From Candidatus Woesebacteria bacterium RBG_13_46_13 (lineage in GTDB: Bacteria > Patescibacteriota > Microgenomatia > UBA8517), in contig MGFR01000003.1 in assembly GCA_001791995.1 (NCBI GenBank), positions 89,543 through 153,542 of the forward strand: DNA of 64,000 nt. The letters run 5' to 3'. The notes beneath the pieces are model-generated. The model worked only from the letters and a program-made list of their open reading frames with translations. It was not told where the DNA came from and made no database searches. Position 1 is the stretch's first letter; each line of letters opens with the position of its first letter. Shown piece after piece: positions 1 through 57,607 of the stretch. Position numbers and translations under genes: made by a program.

Positions 1-399
1 CCTGAATATCCAAAAGAGTAAAGAGGTAATGAGAGAAAGTAAAAACGAAAAGCCGATATAGGCGAGAATCCCCTCCAGGCTTATCGCCGGGAAATCGAAA
101 TACTTAGTCGTAAGCCCGGCAAAAAGGAATTGGATAATCTTAAATCCCGGCACAACCAAGGTCACCAGATATAGGGCAATAGCCGAAGAAACCCACTTAA
201 AAAGACCGAATGTAATCAGGTTTATGGGTAAAAGCAGGATATTGATTATCGGTTTGGCCAGCATGGTTGTAATCGTTAGGGCAACACCGGCCAAAAGCAG
301 GGTCTGGTAGCCGTTTTCGAAAATCATTCCTGAAGTCAGTTGAGAAGCCAGATAAAGCGCAAACGTATCCAAAACATAGTGTCTGATAATTTTTCTCAT
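1..399 (-). CDS. Partial (N-terminal part in window) small membrane protein, DUF360 / phage-holin-4-like family; the gene runs off the left edge
   Basis: Minus-strand ATG at 399, no stop before the window edge. Hand translation MRKIIRHYVLDTFALYLASQLTSGMIFENGYQTLLLAGVALTITT... is hydrophobic and resembles the YvlD/DUF360 family. It is absent from the ORF track because the ORF is not closed. Confidence 0.4.
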   Translation of the reverse strand, partial: MRKIIRHYVLDTFALYLASQLTSGMIFENGYQTLLLAGVALTITTMLAKPIINILLLPINLITFGLFKWVSSAIALYLVTLVVPGFKIIQFLFAGLTTKYFDFPAISLEGILAYIGFSFLLSLITSLLFWIFR

Positions 400-461: not shown

Positions 462-1772
462 AAAGTGGTGATAGCGTCGGGCAAATCTGTGCGCTTCGTC
501 TCTTAATCTTTGAATCAAGTTTAAGGCTGGAGGTTTTAGGCGTACCTCGACAAAGTTCGCCATAACTCCCTGCGGATTTGGAATCACCAAAGTTTCCATT
601 CTTTTGGCCAATCCGACAACGGGAACACCCTCTTTCAGGAAAACCTCTCTGAACGTCGTTACCTGAGCTTTACCTCCGTCAACAACTATCAGGTCGGGTC
701 TACCCCAACCCCTAAGACTTTTAACGCGCCTGGCGGCAATTTCTCTCATGGCGGCAATATCGTCGGCTTTTCTAATAGTTCTAATTTTAAAATGCCGATA
801 GAGGCTTTTTTCCGGTTGCCCGTTGATAAACGTCACCATGGAAGCCGTTTGTTTGGTACCACCAAGATGGGCAACATCAAAACATTCGATTCTGGCTAAT
901 TTATTCTTAACCGGTAAATATTTAGAGATTACTTTCTCTAATTCATTGGATTCAGAAGCCAGGATATCCTCGGAAAGGTTGGGATTTTCTATAAAATCCG
1001 AGACAGGAGTAATCGGTTGAAGAATGTATTCAAGTTTTTGGATTTTTTCTCGTATTTGGGCTGCCGCTTCGTATCCTTGGTTTTTCGAAAGAATTGCCAT
1101 CTGCCTATACAAAGATTGAATTACGGCTTTTGAACGCCTCGAGAGAATATTTTTAAGCATCCGTAAATTACTTCGGTATTTTCGGCGAAGAGCTTGTTTG
1201 GTTTGTATATCGGTCTGGGCTTCGATGCTAGACGGGCAGGGATTGCAAAACCCTATCTGTGAATAAATACAGGCTTTCTTGCCCAATTTATGATCCGAGT
1301 AGGGAATAATTTTCCTCAGCATCCTCAGAACGCTTCTGACGTTGGTTGAAGATGGAAAGGGGCCGTATGTAACCAAGCTGGCCAGTTGGTCGGATTTTCG
1401 GGCGGTTATAACCCTGGGGTATTTTTCCCTGGTAATTTTTATATAGAGAGGGTGTTTGTCATCTTTGGCCACAGTATTGTATGGGGGCTGTTCGCTACGA
1501 ATGAGCTCCGCCTCCAAAAGCAAGGCTTCCAATTCGCTTTCGGATTTGACGTAAATAAAGTATTCCGCCTCAGTCAACATTTTCCGGGTCTTTGGTCCGA
1601 TATGGATAGTCAGGTAAGAATTTAACCTGCTGCGTAAGCTTTTGGCCTTACCTACATAGAGGGCTTCTTTGCCTAAGAAGAAGATATAAATACCCGGGAC
1701 TTCCGGAATCTTCTTAAATTCGGATTTAGTTATTGGGAGGTGGGGCCTTTGGGATAGAATCCTTTTTAACAT
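435..1772 (-). CDS. uvrC: Excinuclease ABC subunit C (UvrC)
   Basis: N-terminal GIY-YIG motif (GIYIFFLGKEALYVGKAKSLRSRLNSY), UvrC homology region, C-terminal HhH region. 445 aa. Confidence 0.9.
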   Translation of the reverse strand: MLKRILSQRPHLPITKSEFKKIPEVPGIYIFFLGKEALYVGKAKSLRSRLNSYLTIHIGPKTRKMLTEAEYFIYVKSESELEALLLEAELIRSEQPPYNTVAKDDKHPLYIKITREKYPRVITARKSDQLASLVTYGPFPSSTNVRSVLRMLRKIIPYSDHKLGKKACIYSQIGFCNPCPSSIEAQTDIQTKQALRRKYRSNLRMLKNILSRRSKAVIQSLYRQMAILSKNQGYEAAAQIREKIQKLEYILQPITPVSDFIENPNLSEDILASESNELEKVISKYLPVKNKLARIECFDVAHLGGTKQTASMVTFINGQPEKSLYRHFKIRTIRKADDIAAMREIAARRVKSLRGWGRPDLIVVDGGKAQVTTFREVFLKEGVPVVGLAKRMETLVIPNPQGVMANFVEVRLKPPALNLIQRLRDEAHRFARRYHHFLVKKDLIS

Positions 1773-8722: not shown

Positions 8723-9358
8723 TTGTATTTTCTATATATGGCACCGATAATTTACAAAAGACAGGGTCAAATACTCGACTTCATCAAGCAGCACATTCAA
8801 GCAACCGGTTCGGCCCCTACCCTAAAACAAATCGCTGACGCGATAGGTGTCTCTTCCCTGGCTACAGTTCATGAACACCTGCAAACCCTTGAGGAAAAGG
8901 GCTTAATCAAGCGCAAAATCGGCAAAACCAGATCAATTGAGCTTACCTCGTCTAACGTCGATTATTCTGCAGTGGGAATGGATGTCCCCATACTGGGCTT
9001 TATCGCCGCAGGAACCCCTATAGAGCCCTACACCGACCCCAATGCCACCATGAGTATTCCTTCGCCCTTTGTTACCGGCAGAAAGCGGGTGTATGTTCTT
9101 CAGGTGCGGGGAGAAAGCATGATTGAAGAACAGATAAGAGACGGAGATTATGTTGTTGTAGAACAGGCGGAACATGCCAACAACGGCGAAATCGTAGTTG
9201 CCCTGCTGGATAACGGGATGGCCACCTTAAAAAGGTTTTTCAGGGAGGCAACCAGAATAAGATTGGAGCCGGCCAATGCCAAGATGAGCCCCATCTTTGT
9301 CAAAAACGTCAGGATTCAGGGAAAAGTGGTTGGGCTGATCAGAAAGTATAAAAATTAA
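8723..9358 (+). CDS. lexA: LexA repressor (S24 peptidase). The start may be the second ATG at 8738.
   Basis: N-terminal winged HTH (LKQIADAIGVSSLATVHEHLQTLEEKGLI) and C-terminal S24 autopeptidase (GESMIE ... K in the RFFREA region). Confidence 0.85.
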   Translation: MYFLYMAPIIYKRQGQILDFIKQHIQATGSAPTLKQIADAIGVSSLATVHEHLQTLEEKGLIKRKIGKTRSIELTSSNVDYSAVGMDVPILGFIAAGTPIEPYTDPNATMSIPSPFVTGRKRVYVLQVRGESMIEEQIRDGDYVVVEQAEHANNGEIVVALLDNGMATLKRFFREATRIRLEPANAKMSPIFVKNVRIQGKVVGLIRKYKN

Positions 9359-9984
9359 GCTTCTCTTCTTCTCTTGAGGTGGGTATAGATATAAAAACCT
9401 ACAGCTGCGATTCCTAAACCGACAATCACGAACTGAAATTTTCTGAAGTAAGGTTCAATTGCCAGCCAATTCTCACCGAGTTTTAAGCCGATATATGCCA
9501 GAAATCCGGACCATAAAAGTGAACCGATAAAGGTCAGTAAGGAAAAAAGAGGCAGGTTCATTTTGGCGATTCCTGCCGGAAGTGAAATAAAGGTCCTGAC
9601 AATCGGCAGCAGCCTTGAGGCAAAGGTTATCCCCTGACCGTATTTTTGATACCAATCCTTCGCCTTATCGTATTCATGCTCCCGGATAAGGAGCCACTTG
9701 CCCCATTTCCTGATGGCGAGCCTGACCCATTCTTCGCCTTTAACGTAACCCAACCAGTAGGCCAAGAGGGAACCCGTAAGGTTCCCGATGGCACCGATAA
9801 GGATGGCTACCCAAAAATTCATGACCCCCATGCCGGCAAGAAAACCGGCAAAAGGCATGGTAATCTCCGAAGGAATGGGAATTAGAGCCGACTCTGCCGT
9901 CATCAAAACAAATACGGCCAAAAGTCCGTAGGAAGAAATGAGACTGGTGAGGTTTGCTACAAAAAATTGGGTAATCTCCTGCAT
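9355..9984 (-). CDS. DedA/SNARE-associated (TVP38) family membrane protein
   Basis: Conserved DedA motifs (YGLLAVFVLMTAESALIPIPSE ; ASRLLPIVRTFISLPAG). Confidence 0.8.
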   Translation of the reverse strand: MQEITQFFVANLTSLISSYGLLAVFVLMTAESALIPIPSEITMPFAGFLAGMGVMNFWVAILIGAIGNLTGSLLAYWLGYVKGEEWVRLAIRKWGKWLLIREHEYDKAKDWYQKYGQGITFASRLLPIVRTFISLPAGIAKMNLPLFSLLTFIGSLLWSGFLAYIGLKLGENWLAIEPYFRKFQFVIVGLGIAAVGFYIYTHLKRRREA

Positions 9985-48235: not shown

Positions 48236-48262
48236 TTCCATAAAAAAAGCGCCCTCCGGCGC
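48236..48262 (-). terminator. Intrinsic terminator (AAGCGCC-CTCC-GGCGCTT + T7) for the 49432-48494 gene
   Basis: Perfect 7-bp GC stem, 4-nt loop, followed on the minus strand by TTTTTTT. Confidence 0.7.
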
Positions 48263-48493
48263 TTGCAGTTGATTTAACTGATTAGCTTATTTACTTATAT
48301 ATCACCAAGTTTCCATTCAGTCAAATTTTATATGATTATCCTATTAGGCTTATCGCAGCTTCCCTATTAATCATTTAACTCCGATAAATAGATATCAAGC
48401 CGGACCGATTTTTTCACTGTGTATATTAAATACCTTTTCAAACACCAACATCCCAACAACAAGACCACCGGCAGGTCGTCTCATCCTTCTGTA

Positions 48494-52453: not shown

Positions 52454-52482
52454 TTGATTTTTGGCCTTGACCGTGCTACAAT
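52454..52482 (+). promoter_or_regulatory. Divergent plus-strand promoter TTGATT-N17-TACAAT for the 52515 gene
   Basis: Read directly. About 33 nt leader with AAGGAGG 5 nt before the ATG. Confidence 0.45.
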
Positions 52483-52514
52483 TCCCCATTCGCTCTTTTC
52501 CATAAGGAGGAATC

Positions 52515-53045
52515 ATGGAGACCAAGCAGCAGAGAGTTGGTCGCGCCTTTTCCGTTCTGGCAATCATCGTCATGTTCGGGCTCGTGGTGGGTCTATCCTG
52601 GAGTGATCTGGGGGAGAAAACCTCGACCTTTTCGGTCTGGATTCCCGCCCCAGAGCCTCCGGAAGAAACCGCCAGACTCCTGGCGCGTTGGCAAAGTGAA
52701 GGTGGGCTGGAGTGGTCAATAGAGGAGTTCCTATCCTTCACTCCTCACCCCGCCTTCGTTTTTCCCATGGAGGATGAATTCGGCAGGGAAGTACTAACCT
52801 ACGTGGGAGAGTTCGGACCTGATTACCCGCTGATGTTCGCTCGGGGGTTCATAAGGATGCCTTTCAGACACTACGTGAACTATCCCAACCATCAGTGGAA
52901 CCTTGAACCTGAAGGGCCCAGAGGAGCCAACCTGATCCTGCATTCGTGGGGCTACGGTTTCCTACCCTGGTCCCTGGCGGTCATCCTGATCTGTATCATG
53001 CTCTACGGCTGGTACCGGATCCGCCTCTGGCTGAGGAGCCTCTAA
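52515..53045 (+). CDS. Hypothetical membrane protein (N- and C-terminal TM helices), GC-rich
   Basis: Strong SD. Helices AFSVLAIIVMFGLVVGL and LPWSLAVILICIMLYGW. No recognisable domain. Confidence 0.55.
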   Translation: METKQQRVGRAFSVLAIIVMFGLVVGLSWSDLGEKTSTFSVWIPAPEPPEETARLLARWQSEGGLEWSIEEFLSFTPHPAFVFPMEDEFGREVLTYVGEFGPDYPLMFARGFIRMPFRHYVNYPNHQWNLEPEGPRGANLILHSWGYGFLPWSLAVILICIMLYGWYRIRLWLRSL

Positions 53046-53071
53046 TTCCCGGAAAGGAGCAATAAGCACCC

Positions 53072-53126
53072 TGAAGACGCAAGTCTTCCGACACGAAAGT
53101 GTTGAAAAAAGGGTGCTTTGCTTTTT
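53072..53126 (+). repeat. Copy A of a ~53-nt structured 3'-end element: two GNRA-capped hairpins (GAAGAC-GCAA-GTCTTC ; CGACAC-GAAA-GTGTTG), then A6-GC-rich-T6
   Basis: Shares a 24-nt identical core (TTCCGACACGAAAGTGTTGAAAAA) with copy B at 56292-56344. Sits 27 nt after the stop of the 52515 gene. Confidence 0.6.
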
Positions 53127-53193
53127 TAATTGAAGAACAAGGTTGCGCACCGGGTGGTGTTTCAGCGGTTAATCCGCATCGCAACCTTCTGAC

Positions 53194-53583
53194 CTACTTC
53201 CAGAACTCCCACCACTTCTTCGCCGGGATATTGGGGATGGCAATCATCCTCTTCCCCAGTGGGGGTGGGGCTGCCTTGCCGGAACGGGCTGCATTCTCCT
53301 GCTTTAGGAGCTCCCTGGACTTCTCCGGCAGAACCCCGGCCTCGTTGGCGTAGAAGCGGAACCAATAGGGCAGGGACTTGCGAATTCCTGCTTCCTGGCT
53401 GGTATCCACGACCATACGCCAGACGACCACCGTCGCGTCCTGGGGCATCAGCATCTGCTGACTCTTGATGAGGAATCCCCGAACCTCCCTTTCGACCTTG
53501 ACAATTGCCTGGTTTGCCACCTTCAACAGCACGTCTCTGTCCTTGCTGTCGAAGTCGAGCCAGAACTCCAAAGTCATGTCCAT
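53194..53583 (-). CDS. Hypothetical protein, GC-rich
   Basis: SD AAGGAGG 6 nt before the ATG at 53583. 129 aa. No family recognised. Confidence 0.5.
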   Translation of the reverse strand: MDMTLEFWLDFDSKDRDVLLKVANQAIVKVEREVRGFLIKSQQMLMPQDATVVVWRMVVDTSQEAGIRKSLPYWFRFYANEAGVLPEKSRELLKQENAARSGKAAPPPLGKRMIAIPNIPAKKWWEFWK

Positions 53584-53669
53584 CGCCGGCCTCCTTTAGG
53601 GCTTAGGGTATGAATTCTGGAAATTGTGAATGCGCGAAAAGACGGCCTATTTTAACACAATTAGACCAT

Positions 53670-54311
53670 TTATGAAGTTTTGAGGTAGGAGATAAGCTTG
53701 ACCGCTATTATATATAGAACGGCCGGAACAGAGAAAATGTAGAAAATCACAAAAGGGAAAGAGCGGGAATCGCTACCGATAAAGAAGGAATGCACCGCAA
53801 CCAACAAGAACACCGCATAATTTAGGATGTGGAACTTTCTCCAGTTTTCCCTCCACCAGGGCAAGGTTCTAAGTTTGGCTGCCAAAACAGCCGCCGAGAC
53901 CAGCCAAAACGATAGTCTTCCAAGGGTATAGAAAAATTCCGGGCGGGTTTTACACATCAGGCAAAAATCGGTAAAAACATAAAAGGGATCAATGACGTGC
54001 CTGGCGATGTAGTTAAAGACCAAAAGAGCCAGGGGGTGAAGAAGAATTAGACTATAAGCCACTGCCCCTTCGGTCAGGTGCCATTTAAAGACCCAGGCTC
54101 CTAGCTTCTCTATCCATTTCTGCATAAAAGAGCCCAAAACAACCTGCCAGAAAAGAAGGACAAAGGCCACTAGCCCCACAACTCTTTGGATAAGATTCAC
54201 AACAAGCAGGTTGTTTAAAGGAACGGGAGATCTAAGAATAAAAATCAAAACGGTAACCGGACCAAGGAGAATGGATAGAAGCCAGACAAGAAGAAAGAGC
54301 TTTTTGTTCAT
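53670..54311 (-). CDS. Six-TM membrane protein with a bis-heme His pattern like ferric-reductase/MsrQ-type transmembrane domains
   Basis: His pairs spaced 13-14 residues apart in predicted TM3 (WHLTEGAVAYSLILLH) and TM5 (FHILNYAVFLLVAVH). Codon usage is AT-richer, matching the host. A TATAAT sits 7 nt before the ATG (leaderless-like). Confidence 0.5.
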   Translation of the reverse strand: MNKKLFLLVWLLSILLGPVTVLIFILRSPVPLNNLLVVNLIQRVVGLVAFVLLFWQVVLGSFMQKWIEKLGAWVFKWHLTEGAVAYSLILLHPLALLVFNYIARHVIDPFYVFTDFCLMCKTRPEFFYTLGRLSFWLVSAAVLAAKLRTLPWWRENWRKFHILNYAVFLLVAVHSFFIGSDSRSFPFVIFYIFSVPAVLYIIAVKLISYLKTS

Positions 54312-54324
54312 TGAAGTAATTATA

Positions 54325-54368
54325 ACAAAAAAAGAGCCTGATCTTTGGCTTATGCCTCAATCAGGCTC
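54325..54368 (-). terminator. Intrinsic terminator (GAGCCTGAT...ATCAGGCTC 9-bp stem + T7) after the 54932-54375 gene
   Basis: Read directly. The T-run is on the minus strand. Confidence 0.65.
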
Positions 54369-54374
54369 CTACTC

Positions 54375-54932
54375 CTAGTACGACAACTCGTCCCACAGGG
54401 GACAGCGAGGAATATACCTCCATCTCTCCCCTTCCTCGAGCCGGCGAACGAAAGCGAACCCGCGGCATTCGAGACCCGGGAAAACAATGAGGTCGGCAAT
54501 GAACGCCTCGTGGTTATCCTCACGTTCGGATTCGGCGACGGCATAGGAAAAGCGCCGGATGTCGAAGACATACTCCTTTCCGACTCTGTCGTCGTAGGCG
54601 TTCATGCTGACATCCCAACCGCTATGAGCCAGGTCAAGCGTGAACATGACCTTGGTAGTACCGTCGAAGGCTGTAGGCCGAAATCCCAATCTCAACCTTC
54701 CGTGCCACCGCCATTCCGGGGCCAGTATGTGCGTAGAATCGAGAGAAGCGAAGAGTCCGAAATAGTACGTTTCTCTCCACATCTCTTCGGTCCTCATCAC
54801 ATCCGGCTGTATCGCTGTAATCAATCCCGGAAAGGGACTCTCCCACCCCTCGTGTACGGGTACGTCCGTGTTGGGGAAGAAGGCGATGATGACGACAGCC
54901 AACGGAACGATCCAAAGCAGATGCTTTTTCAT
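54375..54932 (-). CDS. Secreted hypothetical protein, GC-rich
   Basis: SD AGGAGG. Signal peptide MKKHLLWIVPLAVVIIAFF. 185 aa. Confidence 0.55.
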   Translation of the reverse strand: MKKHLLWIVPLAVVIIAFFPNTDVPVHEGWESPFPGLITAIQPDVMRTEEMWRETYYFGLFASLDSTHILAPEWRWHGRLRLGFRPTAFDGTTKVMFTLDLAHSGWDVSMNAYDDRVGKEYVFDIRRFSYAVAESEREDNHEAFIADLIVFPGLECRGFAFVRRLEEGERWRYIPRCPLWDELSY

Positions 54933-54964
54933 AGCTCCTCCTTTGATTTTGTAAGAGTGCGACT

Positions 54965-55006
54965 CTAGGATAGCGATATTATAGTCCTAGGTATATGAAA
55001 TATCAA
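54965..55006 (-). promoter_or_regulatory. Minus-strand promoter TTGATA-N17-TATAAT for the 54932 gene. The inverted repeat CTAGGA-N14-TCCTAG (54965-54990) brackets the -10.
   Basis: -35 at 55001-55006, -10 at 54978-54983 (minus sense). The IR shares the TAGGA/TCCTA half-site with the 52396-52411 IR. Confidence 0.5.
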
Positions 55007-55037
55007 ATTATAGGCTTAGACCTAAACATACAAATTC

Positions 55038-55066
55038 TTGCTAAATTTGAGGCTATAGGGTATAAT
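55038..55066 (+). promoter_or_regulatory. Plus-strand promoter TTGCTA-N17-TATAAT for the 55122 gene. The leader contains a small hairpin TCCGC-TCGG-GCGGA (55074-55087).
   Basis: Read directly. Back-to-back with the minus-strand promoter. Confidence 0.5.
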
Positions 55067-55121
55067 ACTGGCATCCGCTCGGGCGGAAATTCGCACTTTT
55101 CAATACTCATCAGGAGGAACT

Positions 55122-56276
55122 ATGGCCAAACGTGAAGGACGCTGGGACTGCCGCTCATGCGGCACGAAAGGCGTGAGAGGGCGTTTCAAGTACTGTTCGC
55201 AGTGCGGAAGCCCCCGTCCCGCCAACGTCAAGTTCTACCTCCCGGAAGGAGAACCGGAGGTAACCGATCCGAAACTCCTGGCCCTTGCAGGTGCAGGTCC
55301 AGACTGGACTTGCGAGCACTGCAGCCAGGACAATGTCGGCACTTCCGCTTTCTGCGGACAGTGCGGTGCCAAAAAGGACGGGAGCCCTTCCCGTAAAACC
55401 AAGACCTACGGTCTTGGAAGCATTCCCCGCTCGGGAGATGAATTCCCCGAAGAGGAAAAACCCGCATCCGCGGTTTATTCCCAGGAGACAAGTACGCCGA
55501 AGGGCAGTCTCTTTTCTAAACTGAAGATCCCTGCGGCTATTTGTGCAGGAGCGGCCTTTCTGGGTCTTTTGGGATTTCTGCTTTTCGCACGCCACGACGT
55601 GCCCTTGACCGTCTCGGGCTTCGCCTGGGAAAGAACGGTCACCGTCGAAGAGTACCGCACTGTCGTGGAAGAGGATTGGTCCATCCCCGCCGGAGGCAGA
55701 TACCAAAGCGAGGGACAGGCTATCCACCACTACGACAGCGTTGAGGTCGGGTCCCATCAGGAACCGTATCAAGACTGTCATCAGGAAGTTTCTGGCTCGC
55801 ATCAGGAGTGCAGCCAAGAAGTTACAGGCTACGACTCCTATGTCTGCGGGAGCAGTGATGACGGCAATGGTTTCTTTTCGGATGTTTACTGCGACCGGCC
55901 TGAGTACTCGACCGTCTGTGACTCGGTCACGGACTACTCGACCGTCTGTGACACCTTGTACCGAACGGTCACGGATTACGAGCAGGTACCCGTCTACGCG
56001 ACGAGGTATACCTACGAAATTGAACGTTGGGTCTTTGACCGAACCGAGGTTTCGCAGGGGTCGGACCATACGGCCTTTTGGCCTCCCTTCACCCTTGAGG
56101 ATAACGAGAGGGAGTCGGGGAGGAACGAGGCCTACGAAGTTCTCTTCGTCGACGACGAGGAGAAAACCTACTCCTATACGGTTGATTTAGCCGCTTGGCA
56201 GATCTTCGAGGTCGGCCAGAACTATACCGGCAAGGTCAACACCTTAGGAGTACTGACAGAAGTATCCGATGAGTAA
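55122..56276 (+). CDS. Membrane protein with an N-terminal double zinc ribbon (two CxxC...CxxC pairs), one TM helix and an acidic Cys/His-containing C-terminal domain with internal repeats
   Basis: CRSCGTKGVRGRFKYCSQCG and CEHCSQDNVGTSAFCGQCG. TM AAICAGAAFLGLLGFLLF. In-frame 18-bp perfect direct repeat TACTCGACCGTCTGTGAC at 55905 and 55935 (YSTVCD x2). Strong SD. Confidence 0.6.
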   Translation: MAKREGRWDCRSCGTKGVRGRFKYCSQCGSPRPANVKFYLPEGEPEVTDPKLLALAGAGPDWTCEHCSQDNVGTSAFCGQCGAKKDGSPSRKTKTYGLGSIPRSGDEFPEEEKPASAVYSQETSTPKGSLFSKLKIPAAICAGAAFLGLLGFLLFARHDVPLTVSGFAWERTVTVEEYRTVVEEDWSIPAGGRYQSEGQAIHHYDSVEVGSHQEPYQDCHQEVSGSHQECSQEVTGYDSYVCGSSDDGNGFFSDVYCDRPEYSTVCDSVTDYSTVCDTLYRTVTDYEQVPVYATRYTYEIERWVFDRTEVSQGSDHTAFWPPFTLEDNERESGRNEAYEVLFVDDEEKTYSYTVDLAAWQIFEVGQNYTGKVNTLGVLTEVSDE

Positions 56277-56291
56277 GACAAGAAGCGCCCC

Positions 56292-56344
56292 GAATCCGCA
56301 AGGATTCCGACACGAAAGTGTTGAAAAAGGGGCGCTTGTTTTTT
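56292..56344 (+). repeat. Copy B of the structured 3'-end element (GAATCC-GCAA-GGATTC ; CGACAC-GAAA-GTGTTG ; A5-GGGGCGCTTG-T6). Abuts the 3' end of tRNA-Val on the opposite strand.
   Basis: The first hairpin differs from copy A on both arms (GAAGAC/GTCTTC to GAATCC/GGATTC) yet stays perfectly paired. Lies 16 nt after the stop of the 55122 gene. Confidence 0.6.
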
Positions 56345-56349
56345 GGAGG

Positions 56350-56421
56350 TGGTCGCTGAGGGATTCGAACCCCCGGCCTTCGCAATGTGAATGCGACGCT
56401 CTACCGCTGAGCCAAGCGACC
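56350..56421 (-). tRNA. tRNA-Val (anticodon CAC)
   Basis: Reverse complement folds with acceptor GGTCGCT/AGCGACC, D-arm GCTC-AGCGGTA-GAGC, anticodon stem TCGCA/TGCGA with loop TTCACAT, T-arm GGGGG-TTCGAAT-CCCTC, discriminator A. Confidence 0.8.
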
Positions 56422-56527: not shown

Positions 56528-57607
56528 ATGGATCAGAAGTTTCCCCTAGGCCTTTCCTTCGACGATGTGCTGCTTATCCCCCGCTATTCGGAAATTGCCT
56601 CCCGCGAAGATGTTGATCTCACTACCCGAATTACTCCCAAGCTCACCCTCAAGCTTCCCCTTTTAAGCGCCAACATGACTGATGTGACCGGTATTAAAAT
56701 GGCTGTGACCTTGGGCAAACTCGGGGCTCTTGGAGTCCTCCCCCGTTTTATGAGCGCCGAGGATGAAGCGGATATGGTTGCGGCCGTCAAAAAAGAGGGG
56801 TTAACCGTTGCGGCCGCGGTTGGCTTACGAAACGGAATGTTTGATCGGGCGGAGCAGCTGGTCAAAGCCGGAGCCGAAGTTTTGTTTCTTGACGTTGCCC
56901 ACGGACACATGCGCAAGGCAACCGAGGCAACCAAGAAACTTAGGCAAAAATTCGGTAAAAGTGTTGATATCGTCTCCGGAAATATCGCCACCTACGATGG
57001 TGCGGACGCTCTTTTCAGGGCCGGAGCCGATTGCGTCAAGGTCGGGGTTGGACCGGGAACCATTTGTATTACTAGGATCGAAACGGGTTTTGGGGTACCG
57101 CAAATGTCGGCCATCTTGGAAGCCGCAAGGGCAGCCAGGCGCCACCGAAAGACAATAATCGCCGACGGAGGAACTAAAAACTCCGGTGATGTAGTTAAAG
57201 CTCTGGCAGCGGGTGCATCGGCTGTCATGGCTGGTAGCCAGTTTGCCGGAACAGATGAGGCCCCCGGAGAAAAAATAACCCTAAAAGGTAAGGATTTTAA
57301 GAGGTACTACGCTTCTACTTCCTTTAAGGAAAAGAAAAATCATATCAAGAAAAACGGAGAGAATTTGTCCCAGGATTACGCAAAACACATCGAAGGAATT
57401 GAAAGTATGGTCCCTTATAAGGGCCCTGTTAAGGAAATTCTTGAAAAAATGTCAGCTAATATCCGCTCCGGTCTTTCCTACTGTGGTGCAAAGGAATTAT
57501 TGGACTTGTGGAGAAAGGCAAAATTTGTAAGAATAACCTCCCAAGGCTTAAAGGAAAGCGGACCGCACGATGTGGTAGTTAATGAAAACGGATGGCGGAA
57601 CAAATAG
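56528..57607 (+). CDS. IMP dehydrogenase/GMP reductase family enzyme lacking a CBS subdomain (GuaC/GuaB-like)
   Basis: Catalytic Cys loop [20 protein letters not shown], phosphate-binding [24 protein letters not shown]. 359 aa, a size typical of GMP reductase. Confidence 0.7.

Follow-up and report, generated by a model that had tools for sequence, protein, structure and literature searches.

In their canonical form, intrinsic (Rho-independent) terminators are GC-rich stems with a loop of about 3–8 nucleotides (nt) that are followed at once by a U-tract and stand where a transcription unit ends, a few nucleotides past the stop codon, and both terminator finders and most models of intrinsic termination presume such a simple hairpin. 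Elements of the REP/BIME and Correia/NEMIS kinds are repeated and structured, lie in 3' intergenic positions, often between convergent genes, and can terminate or stabilise transcripts; their dispersed copies number in the tens to hundreds, and target duplications or a dedicated transposase are common among them. The attC site of integrons is a structured imperfect palindrome 3' of each exchangeable open reading frame (ORF) cassette, with a conserved structure and a variable sequence, and some long attC sites are branched. Phage morons and similar units bring their own promoter, one ORF, and their own terminator, and are present or absent between otherwise syntenic genomes. Here, we describe an element of about 55 nt, a three-way junction RNA, that occurs twice in a 64,000-nt stretch of the genome of Candidatus Woesebacteria bacterium RBG_13_46_13 (contig MGFR01000003.1, positions 89,543 to 153,542; this whole stretch is called the window below). 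We read it, with moderate confidence, as a branched intrinsic terminator that would also stabilise the 3' end, and as the 3' module of an expression frame that is used repeatedly.

Extra conserved structure within the stem of an intrinsic terminator has been described for terminator-embedded aptamers, i.e., the HMP-PP/thiS riboswitch, guanidine-IV, and the HRC-8-4 motif (PMC6478431; PMC8632094). The present element shares this added structure with them, whereas theirs is located in 5' leaders upstream of the controlled genes and has conserved ligand-contact nucleotides; ours follows ORFs and mostly faces convergent genes, its junction and loops vary, and it has no match in Rfam. The leader position of the HMP-PP and guanidine-IV type is not what was found, as a single copy from a related genome (copy A' at locus L002) has a same-strand gene downstream. 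With canonical terminators the element has in common the GC-rich stem, the immediate U-tract, the short distance to the stop codon, and the location at the end of a transcription unit, and it differs from them by a conserved two-hairpin insert of 37–45 nt, maintained through compensatory changes, where they have a short loop. A search of the literature on branched, Y-shaped, or multi-stem terminators found no relevant description. The element matches no described RNA family and is best described as one that would act like a known kind of element.

The sequence-only reading of this DNA had noted two repeats with an identical 24-nt core, each behind a plus-strand gene, and this was borne out: the core TTCCGACACGAAAGTGTTGAAAAA has two exact sites in the window, at 53086 and 56305, both on the plus strand, with no third site in the window at up to three mismatches and none in 100 shuffles. 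The repeat itself measures 66 nt (53060–53125 versus 56279–56344, 82% identity), and the 12 of 66 positions at which copies A and B differ keep the pairing. Homology ends at both borders, so the repeat is not part of a longer duplication, and a simple duplication that includes the flanks is thus excluded. Two hairpins with GNRA loops, the first with a compensatory stem change, read as had been claimed. The GC-rich 10-mer behind them, earlier taken as a separate block, is the 3' strand of a closing helix that would serve as the terminator stem: it is complementary to the 9 nt before the first hairpin, and each copy is therefore a three-way junction. An outer helix P1 of 9 base pairs (bp) encloses P2 (6 bp, GCAA loop), P3 (6 bp, GAAA loop, one G-U pair), and an A5 linker, and the U-tract follows. 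P1 is formed by AAGCACCCU/AGGGUGCUU in copy A and by AAGCGCCCC/GGGGCGCUU in copy B, with two pairs changed on both sides (A-U to G-C and U-A to C-G); it has 6–7 G-C pairs among its 9 bp, and a U-tract stands directly 3' of it in both copies and all relatives. The parts of the two copies, both on the plus strand, are as follows.

53064–53127, plus strand: copy A (sequence; RNAfold; covariance-model match of 90.8 bits)
53064–53072, plus strand: copy A, 5' strand of P1
53073–53088, plus strand: copy A, P2, GAAGAC-GCAA-GUCUUC
53089–53104, plus strand: copy A, P3, CGACAC-GAAA-GUGUUG
53105–53109, plus strand: copy A, A5 linker
53110–53118, plus strand: copy A, 3' strand of P1
53119–53127, plus strand: copy A, U-tract UGCUUUUUU
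56283–56344, plus strand: copy B (sequence; RNAfold; covariance-model match of 97.9 bits)
56283–56291, plus strand: copy B, 5' strand of P1
56292–56307, plus strand: copy B, P2, GAAUCC-GCAA-GGAUUC
56308–56323, plus strand: copy B, P3
56324–56328, plus strand: copy B, A5 linker
56329–56337, plus strand: copy B, 3' strand of P1
56338–56344, plus strand: copy B, U-tract GUUUUUU

Folding with RNAfold, which had been proposed as a check on both copies, returned the same three-way junction for each, at −28.3 kcal/mol for copy A (z = −5.9) and −33.4 kcal/mol for copy B (z = −6.6), and in neither case was any of 200 shuffles as stable. The minus strand folds more weakly (−23.2 and −27.1 kcal/mol, respectively), and the G-U pair of P3 would be an A-C mismatch if that strand were transcribed.

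Two covariance models (R1 and R2) were built and run on loci fetched via the zinc-ribbon protein whose gene precedes copy B and via the adjacent IMPDH gene. Further copies, sought as the sequence-only reading had suggested by core and covariance-model searches, were found in related metagenomic contigs: orthologues of copy B are present at L001/L129 (L129 is a 37-kb contig of the L001 genome), L002, L005, L131, and L134–L138. The versions that depart from those in the window are listed here.

L005, 2875–2940: P3 CGUCGA-GAAA-UCGAUG; P2 GACC-CAAAA-GGUC
L002, 2048–2113, minus strand: copy A', P3 as in L005; P2 loop UAUAC; P1 AAGCGCCCU/AGGGCGCUU
L131, 7486–7551: P3 as in L005; P2 cut down to GAC-CUAAUAA-GUC
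L134–L138: P1 and P2 as in copy B; a third P3, UACACA-GAAA-UGUGUA or CUGCACA-GAAC-UGUGUAG; longer junction strands

The window copies and all relatives have one common minimum-free-energy fold. P3 exists in three sequence versions of 6–7 bp each (CGACAC/GUGUUG, CGUCGA/UCGAUG, and UACACA/UGUGUA), and since these stems are wholly different and all pair, the fold is hard to explain without selection. In an alignment of seven sequences, from which L134–L138 were left out, 96.5% of the cells for 21 pairs are paired, against 28–44% once the 3' partners are slid, and 9 of the 21 pairs show double, compensatory changes that are spread over all three helices (two in P1, four in P2, and three in P3); none of 500 shuffles reached the observed covariation score. 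Between closely related genomes the element stands still while its surroundings change, being identical at 60 of 60 positions with L002 and at 61 of 61 with L001, compared with 89.7% identity in the flanking coding DNA and 92.1% in the flanking DNA, respectively. Relative to L005, where the flanks have fallen to 72–73%, the fold is retained via compensatory changes. This comparative evidence argues that the fold is under selection at the RNA level and does not reflect plain sequence duplication, as had been proposed from the window alone. Outside the helices, variation is considerable: the P2 loop is GCAA, CAAAA, UAUAC, or CUAAUAA, one P3 loop is GAAC, and the junction strands J2/3 and J3/1 measure 0–5 and 5–8 nt. 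An A-rich linker of 5–8 nt is found in every version and the GAAA loop of P3 in all versions but one, and the P2 and P3 versions combine as a mosaic across the relatives.

The 3' element is accompanied by a second conserved module at the other end of the genes. A motif in the 5' untranslated region (UTR), ATTCGCNCTTTTCNATA, has exactly two sites in the window, at 52488 and 55089, and these precede just the two genes that end in the three-way junction. Both genes share a 5' module, and the twice-used unit, judged from these sequences, is the whole expression frame and not the 3' end alone. Its parts in the window, and its positions in related loci, are given below.

52454–52514, plus strand: 5' module of the copy-A cassette, which lacks the 5' hairpin seen in other cassettes
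52454–52459, plus strand: copy-A cassette, −35 box TTGATT
52477–52482, plus strand: copy-A cassette, −10 box TACAAT
52488–52504, plus strand: copy-A cassette, motif ATTCGCTCTTTTCCATA
52505–52510, plus strand: copy-A cassette, Shine-Dalgarno sequence AGGAGG
55038–55121, plus strand: 5' module of the copy-B cassette
55038–55043, plus strand: copy-B cassette, −35 box TTGCTA
55061–55066, plus strand: copy-B cassette, −10 box TATAAT
55075–55086, plus strand: copy-B cassette, 5'-terminal hairpin CCGC-UCGG-GCGG
55089–55105, plus strand: copy-B cassette, motif ATTCGCACTTTTCAATA
55112–55117, plus strand: copy-B cassette, Shine-Dalgarno sequence AGGAGG
L129 9205–9303, L005 1615–1712, L131 7170–7272, and L137 60–140: 5' module in relatives
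L002 1960–2050 and 2630–2720, minus strand: 5' modules of the two L002 cassettes

By alignment, a homologous 5' module lies upstream in seven cassettes from five loci; its parts are a −10 box, a hairpin where transcription is predicted to begin, the motif AAUUCGCACUUUUC(A/C)AUAC, and the strong Shine-Dalgarno sequence AGGAGG; an eighth cassette, in L137, has the same module with the hairpin UUCCGA-AUCC-UUCGGAA. The 5' hairpin covaries as well (CCGC-UCGG-GCGG, CUCCGA-UUC-UCGGAG, and others), and it is deleted before the gene for the 176-amino-acid (aa) protein that copy A closes. A more diverged relative of the motif, GUCGCACUCUUACAAAAUC, is located in the 5' UTR of a divergent minus-strand operon, at about 54933–54980.

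What stands between the two modules changes from genome to genome. By synteny, window positions 52459–53132, i.e., the promoter, the 176-aa ORF, and copy A, are missing from L129. At the slot of the zinc-ribbon ORF (window 55120–56283), L129 has an unrelated, lipoprotein-like 146-aa ORF (9297–9760), with the 5' module (93% identical) and element B retained on either side of the replacement. The same slot holds a 64-aa ORF for a membrane peptide in L131 (7268–7462) and a 173-aa homologue of the 176-aa protein in L134–L138 (138–659 in L137). Pairwise BLASTP distinguishes at least four unrelated ORF families within the frame, and the cassette of the 176-aa family is found in three different positions relative to the gene for tRNA-Val. 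Like phage morons, these units have their own promoter, one ORF, and their own terminator-like end and come and go between syntenic loci; unlike morons, they stand in no phage context, and the same promoter/5' UTR and terminator are reused around unrelated ORFs. Cassettes would be moved or replaced, as we infer, through recombination between their conserved ends. The three-way junction is best described, from the loci compared here, as the module that closes the 3' side of a promoter-to-terminator frame, which is reused for unrelated ORFs next to tRNA-Val, and this frame looks as if it were built for stable, well-expressed mRNAs. Pairing between the 5' UTR and the junction, by which the mRNA would circularise, found no backing, as a 10-bp match seen by eye was no better than dinucleotide shuffles in the seven cassettes (z between −1.1 and +1.0).

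In L002, two cassettes stand in tandem. At about 2020–2050 on the minus strand, the first U-tract runs into TTGACT, 17 nt upstream of the next TATAAT, and from its sequence the tail of the terminator seems to serve also as a −35 box for the next promoter. Behind element B of the same locus (about 690–745, minus strand) lies a degenerate copy of tRNA-Val, in which the 44-nt 3' half from the anticodon loop to the 3' end is intact and the 5' half has decayed; it is followed by about 340 nt with an 85-aa ORF and then by the intact tRNA-Val (272–347, plus strand). Judging by the order of these parts, the arrangement looks like a duplication or an integration scar, with the tRNA-Val 3' end as a rearrangement hot spot.

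The element is present in six lineages whose IMPDH proteins are 78–93% identical to that of the window. It is absent at L008, L132, L133, and L139 (IMPDH identity of 76–80%) and at 13 more distant Woesebacteria/Microgenomates loci with tRNA-Val–IMPDH synteny, and relatives without the element have no hairpin after tRNA-Val. Additional copies that might bound an island, for which the sequence-only reading had proposed to check, did not turn up: a model search with filters off gave no third copy in the 64-kb window, about 630 kb of related loci held no further copies, and L005, L129, and L131 have one copy each in the sequence examined. A 20-mer of the core gave no match in one scan each of GTDB species-representative genomes and IMG/VR viral contigs, and one scan of JGI metagenome contigs gave two matches, both of them copy B orthologues beside tRNA-Val. 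With Rfam 15 at gathering thresholds, four tRNAs alone were detected in the window; at E ≤ 10, the sole overlap with the copies was a chance 19-bit match to the plastid psbA 3' UTR model (gathering threshold 48), and the L001, L002, and L005 copies had no match. Only chance matches (E ≥ 0.6) were obtained by blastn against phage and plasmid collections. A degenerate, structure-aware pattern picked out 67 loci on viral contigs, in which P3 was never fully paired (no more than 5 of its 6 pairs), and of the best three candidates none folds into a three-way junction. The searches thus point to an element that is low in copy number (1–2 per locus), patchy, and restricted to a narrow Woesebacteria clade, and not to a dispersed repeat.

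The genes closed by the element and its immediate surroundings comprise the following features.

52515–53045, plus strand: gene closed by copy A, a 176-aa membrane ORFan with remote homologues of 170 aa (L002) and 173 aa (L137), both of which also have the element 3' of them
55122–56276, plus strand: gene closed by copy B, a 384-aa protein with RanBP2-type zinc ribbons and a transmembrane segment
56348–56421, minus strand: tRNA-Val(CAC), convergent with the zinc-ribbon gene, its 3' end 3–5 nt from the U-tract of copy B

Homologues of the 176-aa protein were detected only inside the Woesebacteria clade. For the zinc-ribbon protein, the named homologues among the matches listed are mostly from Chloroflexi, Cyanobacteria, and other non-Patescibacteria, with 35–43% identity, and one of the matches listed is from Woesebacteria. 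GC content is 0.49–0.55 across 52–56.3 kb and 0.40–0.47 to the left, and because of this raised GC content and the mostly non-Patescibacteria homologues, the 52–56.3 kb region is probably acquired DNA. Copy A faces a convergent gene (53194–53583, minus strand) and copy B the convergent tRNA-Val, which has no encoded 3' CCA: at 56347–56350, the discriminator A is followed by CCU, which merges into the complement of the copy-B U-tract. Pfam scans identified the neighbouring genes as cell-surface glycan genes (Wzy_C, GT2, PMT_2, and a methyltransferase) and found no integrase or recombinase among the neighbouring ORFs at 44.8–57 kb. Beyond the tRNA, the IMPDH/GMP-reductase-like gene (56528–57607) is short (359 aa), with one IMPDH-domain Pfam match over residues 8–347 and no separate CBS match; outside Patescibacteria, the next-closest proteins in the genome collection are haloarchaeal (41–47% identity). 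The sequence relatives of the window are Candidatus Woesebacteria bacterium RBG_19FT_COMBO_47_8 (GCA_001792165.1) and GCA_035256625.1, both of them Patescibacteria of the candidate phyla radiation.

The ordinary terminators of this genome are GC-rich hairpins of 7–8 bp followed by U6–8, and the P1 stem AAGCGCC/GGCGCUU plus U-run recurs as a plain hairpin terminator at 48238–48266 (minus strand). Back to back with copy A stands a second branched structure of unrelated sequence:

53132–53188, minus strand: second branched terminator, closing gene 53194–53583 (minus strand); P1 AAGGUUGCG/CGCAACCUU; P2 GCGG-AUUAA-CCGC; P3 CACC-ACCC-GGUG

RNAfold gives it −24.7 kcal/mol (z = −2.9). It is conserved in L129 (6883–6940), where a clean U8 run lies 3' of it, and in the window the copy-A cassette is inserted exactly at the position of that U-run, leaving the weak tail GUUCUUCAAUU. 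Branched terminators as a general habit of the genome were considered and rejected, as copy B alone gave a strong branched fold among 43 stem-plus-T5 candidates of the window; the script behind this count missed copy A, its four other branched matches were weak, and a standard hairpin scan reported neither copy on the plus strand. A bidirectional terminator was likewise discarded, the minus-strand tails past P1 being moderately U-rich and not conserved, and no hairpin following tRNA-Val in relatives that lack the element.

The favoured reading of the element as a branched intrinsic terminator draws on its position as well as its shape. A GC-rich stem (P1) stands directly before a U-rich tract; read in the sense direction of the gene upstream, this tract comes after P1 in all cases, where the transcription unit ends, and P1 begins 6–19 nt past the stop codon throughout. 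The earlier suggestion of a tandem-hairpin terminator or 3' stabiliser was right in kind on these grounds; what did not hold is the tandem arrangement, since each copy is one three-way junction. Under this model, P2 and P3 would fold first, as soon as they leave the polymerase, and draw the two strands of P1 close to each other; P1 would then form beside the U-tract with release of the transcript, and the compact junction left at the 3' end would slow 3'-to-5' decay. The full frame would then read, in order, a sigma-70-type promoter, a 5'-end hairpin, the conserved 5' UTR motif, a strong Shine-Dalgarno sequence, any ORF, and the three-way-junction terminator. Several points weigh against this reading. 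It is not a simple hairpin, as the P1 strands are 37–45 nt apart with two hairpins between them, and a simple hairpin would serve equally, so that P2 and P3, in being kept, hint at a further role outside the terminator model. The argument for termination is one from shape alone, GC interrupts the passage from P1 to the U6 run in copy A, and one L002 copy is found about 80 nt before the start of the zinc-ribbon gene, where it may have a 5' regulatory role. The distinct sequences number about eight and are from closely related genomes, the covariation counts do not represent independent events, and recombination between few alleles could account for part of the pattern.

The kept P2 and P3 leave room for a binding or tertiary role. 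A 3' UTR recognition element, with the junction bound by a protein or a tertiary fold and tagging mRNAs for a common post-transcriptional control (of stability, localisation, or translation), would have termination as a by-product; it would account for P2 and P3 being kept throughout when P1 as a plain hairpin would suffice for termination, for the nearly constant P3 loop and constant A-rich linker, and for the co-occurrence with a conserved 5' UTR module on unrelated ORFs, as expected of a shared regulon tag. We nevertheless consider it unlikely, since loop and junction sequences vary considerably, which argues against specific ligand or protein contact, the entire P3 stem has been exchanged in three alleles, the locus is linked to no candidate binding protein, and pairing between the 5' UTR and the junction equals that of shuffled controls. 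About as doubtful is a broader proposal that bacteria of the candidate phyla radiation have a portable system of gene cassettes whose ends are the 5' module and the junction, with unrelated, probably foreign ORFs fitted precisely in between and the junction acting as an integron-like recombination or recognition site with no known integrase, or as an mRNA tag for an unknown RNA-binding factor. Far more remote is a ligand-sensing or self-cleaving RNA, i.e., an aptamer embedded in the terminator or a ribozyme: one L002 copy upstream of a gene would suit it, whereas both window copies precede convergent genes and have nothing downstream to regulate, the junction nucleotides are few and variable, and no Rfam riboswitch or ribozyme model matches at E ≤ 10. 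A hammerhead, examined by eye, was also rejected, as CUGAAGA is present in copy A and not in copy B and the junction strands misfit the hammerhead core.

Readings at the DNA level have to be weighed against the same cassette turnover. If the element were a cassette boundary, at which ORFs are exchanged by homologous recombination at repeated ends or by an unknown site-specific recombinase that acts on the folded strand in the manner of attC, one would understand that whole cassettes come and go (window 52459–53132), that the ORF alone was swapped between the conserved 5' UTR and the element in L129, L131, and L134, that the 176-aa cassette takes three positions relative to tRNA-Val, and that P2 and P3 versions are mosaic. 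Yet, unlike in integrons, the ends of the element read AAGCGCCCC ... GGGGCGCTTGTTTTTT without GTTRRRY, so that attC core sites (RYYYAAC...GTTRRRY; R'/R'') are lacking, no IntI or other integrase or recombinase was found nearby, and the cassettes form no one-directional array, having their own promoters and neighbours of mixed orientation. Selection on RNA is favoured by the G-U pair, by a U-tract specific to one strand, and by the more stable folding of the sense strand, and homology breakpoints fall at no fixed position within the element. We regard this reading as improbable, and a weak version of the attC-like idea is kept alive by cassette turnover at the element ends. Still less probable is a selfish miniature repeat (of the miniature inverted-repeat transposable element (MITE), REP, or Correia type) that spreads in intergenic regions and resembles or doubles as a terminator. 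P1 does resemble 9-bp terminal inverted repeats, the location is 3' intergenic and often between convergent genes, and versions are out of step with position, L002 copy A' being nearer to the L005 and L131 copies than to L002 copy B. What such repeats show and this element does not is a multitude of dispersed copies in either orientation with target-site duplications: the 1–2 copies per locus, without others in the window or the ~630 kb of related loci, have a single orientation relative to the upstream gene and are always paired with the 5' module, the core scans gave two orthologous loci alone, both metagenomic, and the L129 indel has no target-site duplications. The sequence-only reading had also pointed to att-like repeats (attL/attR) of an element integrated at the tRNA-Val 3' end, and we consider this very improbable. 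Copy B does abut that end, GC content in 52–56.3 kb exceeds that of the flanks, and the degenerate second tRNA-Val of L002 with its intact 3' half lies beside the element; on the other side, no segment of tRNA-Val is repeated in the window (its 3' 29-mer occurs there once even with three mismatches), there is no integrase, copy A is neither at the edge of the GC-rich block nor next to a tRNA fragment, the two copies differ from each other in ways that maintain pairing, and L005, L129, and L131 show a single copy.

The practical weight of the finding is modest for now, given an element that is lineage-restricted, low in copy number, and putative in function. Should it terminate transcription, branched terminators are real and go unrecognised in lineages that have received little study. 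Of possibly greater consequence is the wider pattern, i.e., the reuse of a promoter/5' UTR and a structured 3' end by cassettes that appear, disappear, and replace one another next to a tRNA gene; this aspect is the one most worth following. The pattern suggests a simple way in which bacteria with very small genomes could fit new surface or membrane proteins into an expression unit that already works.

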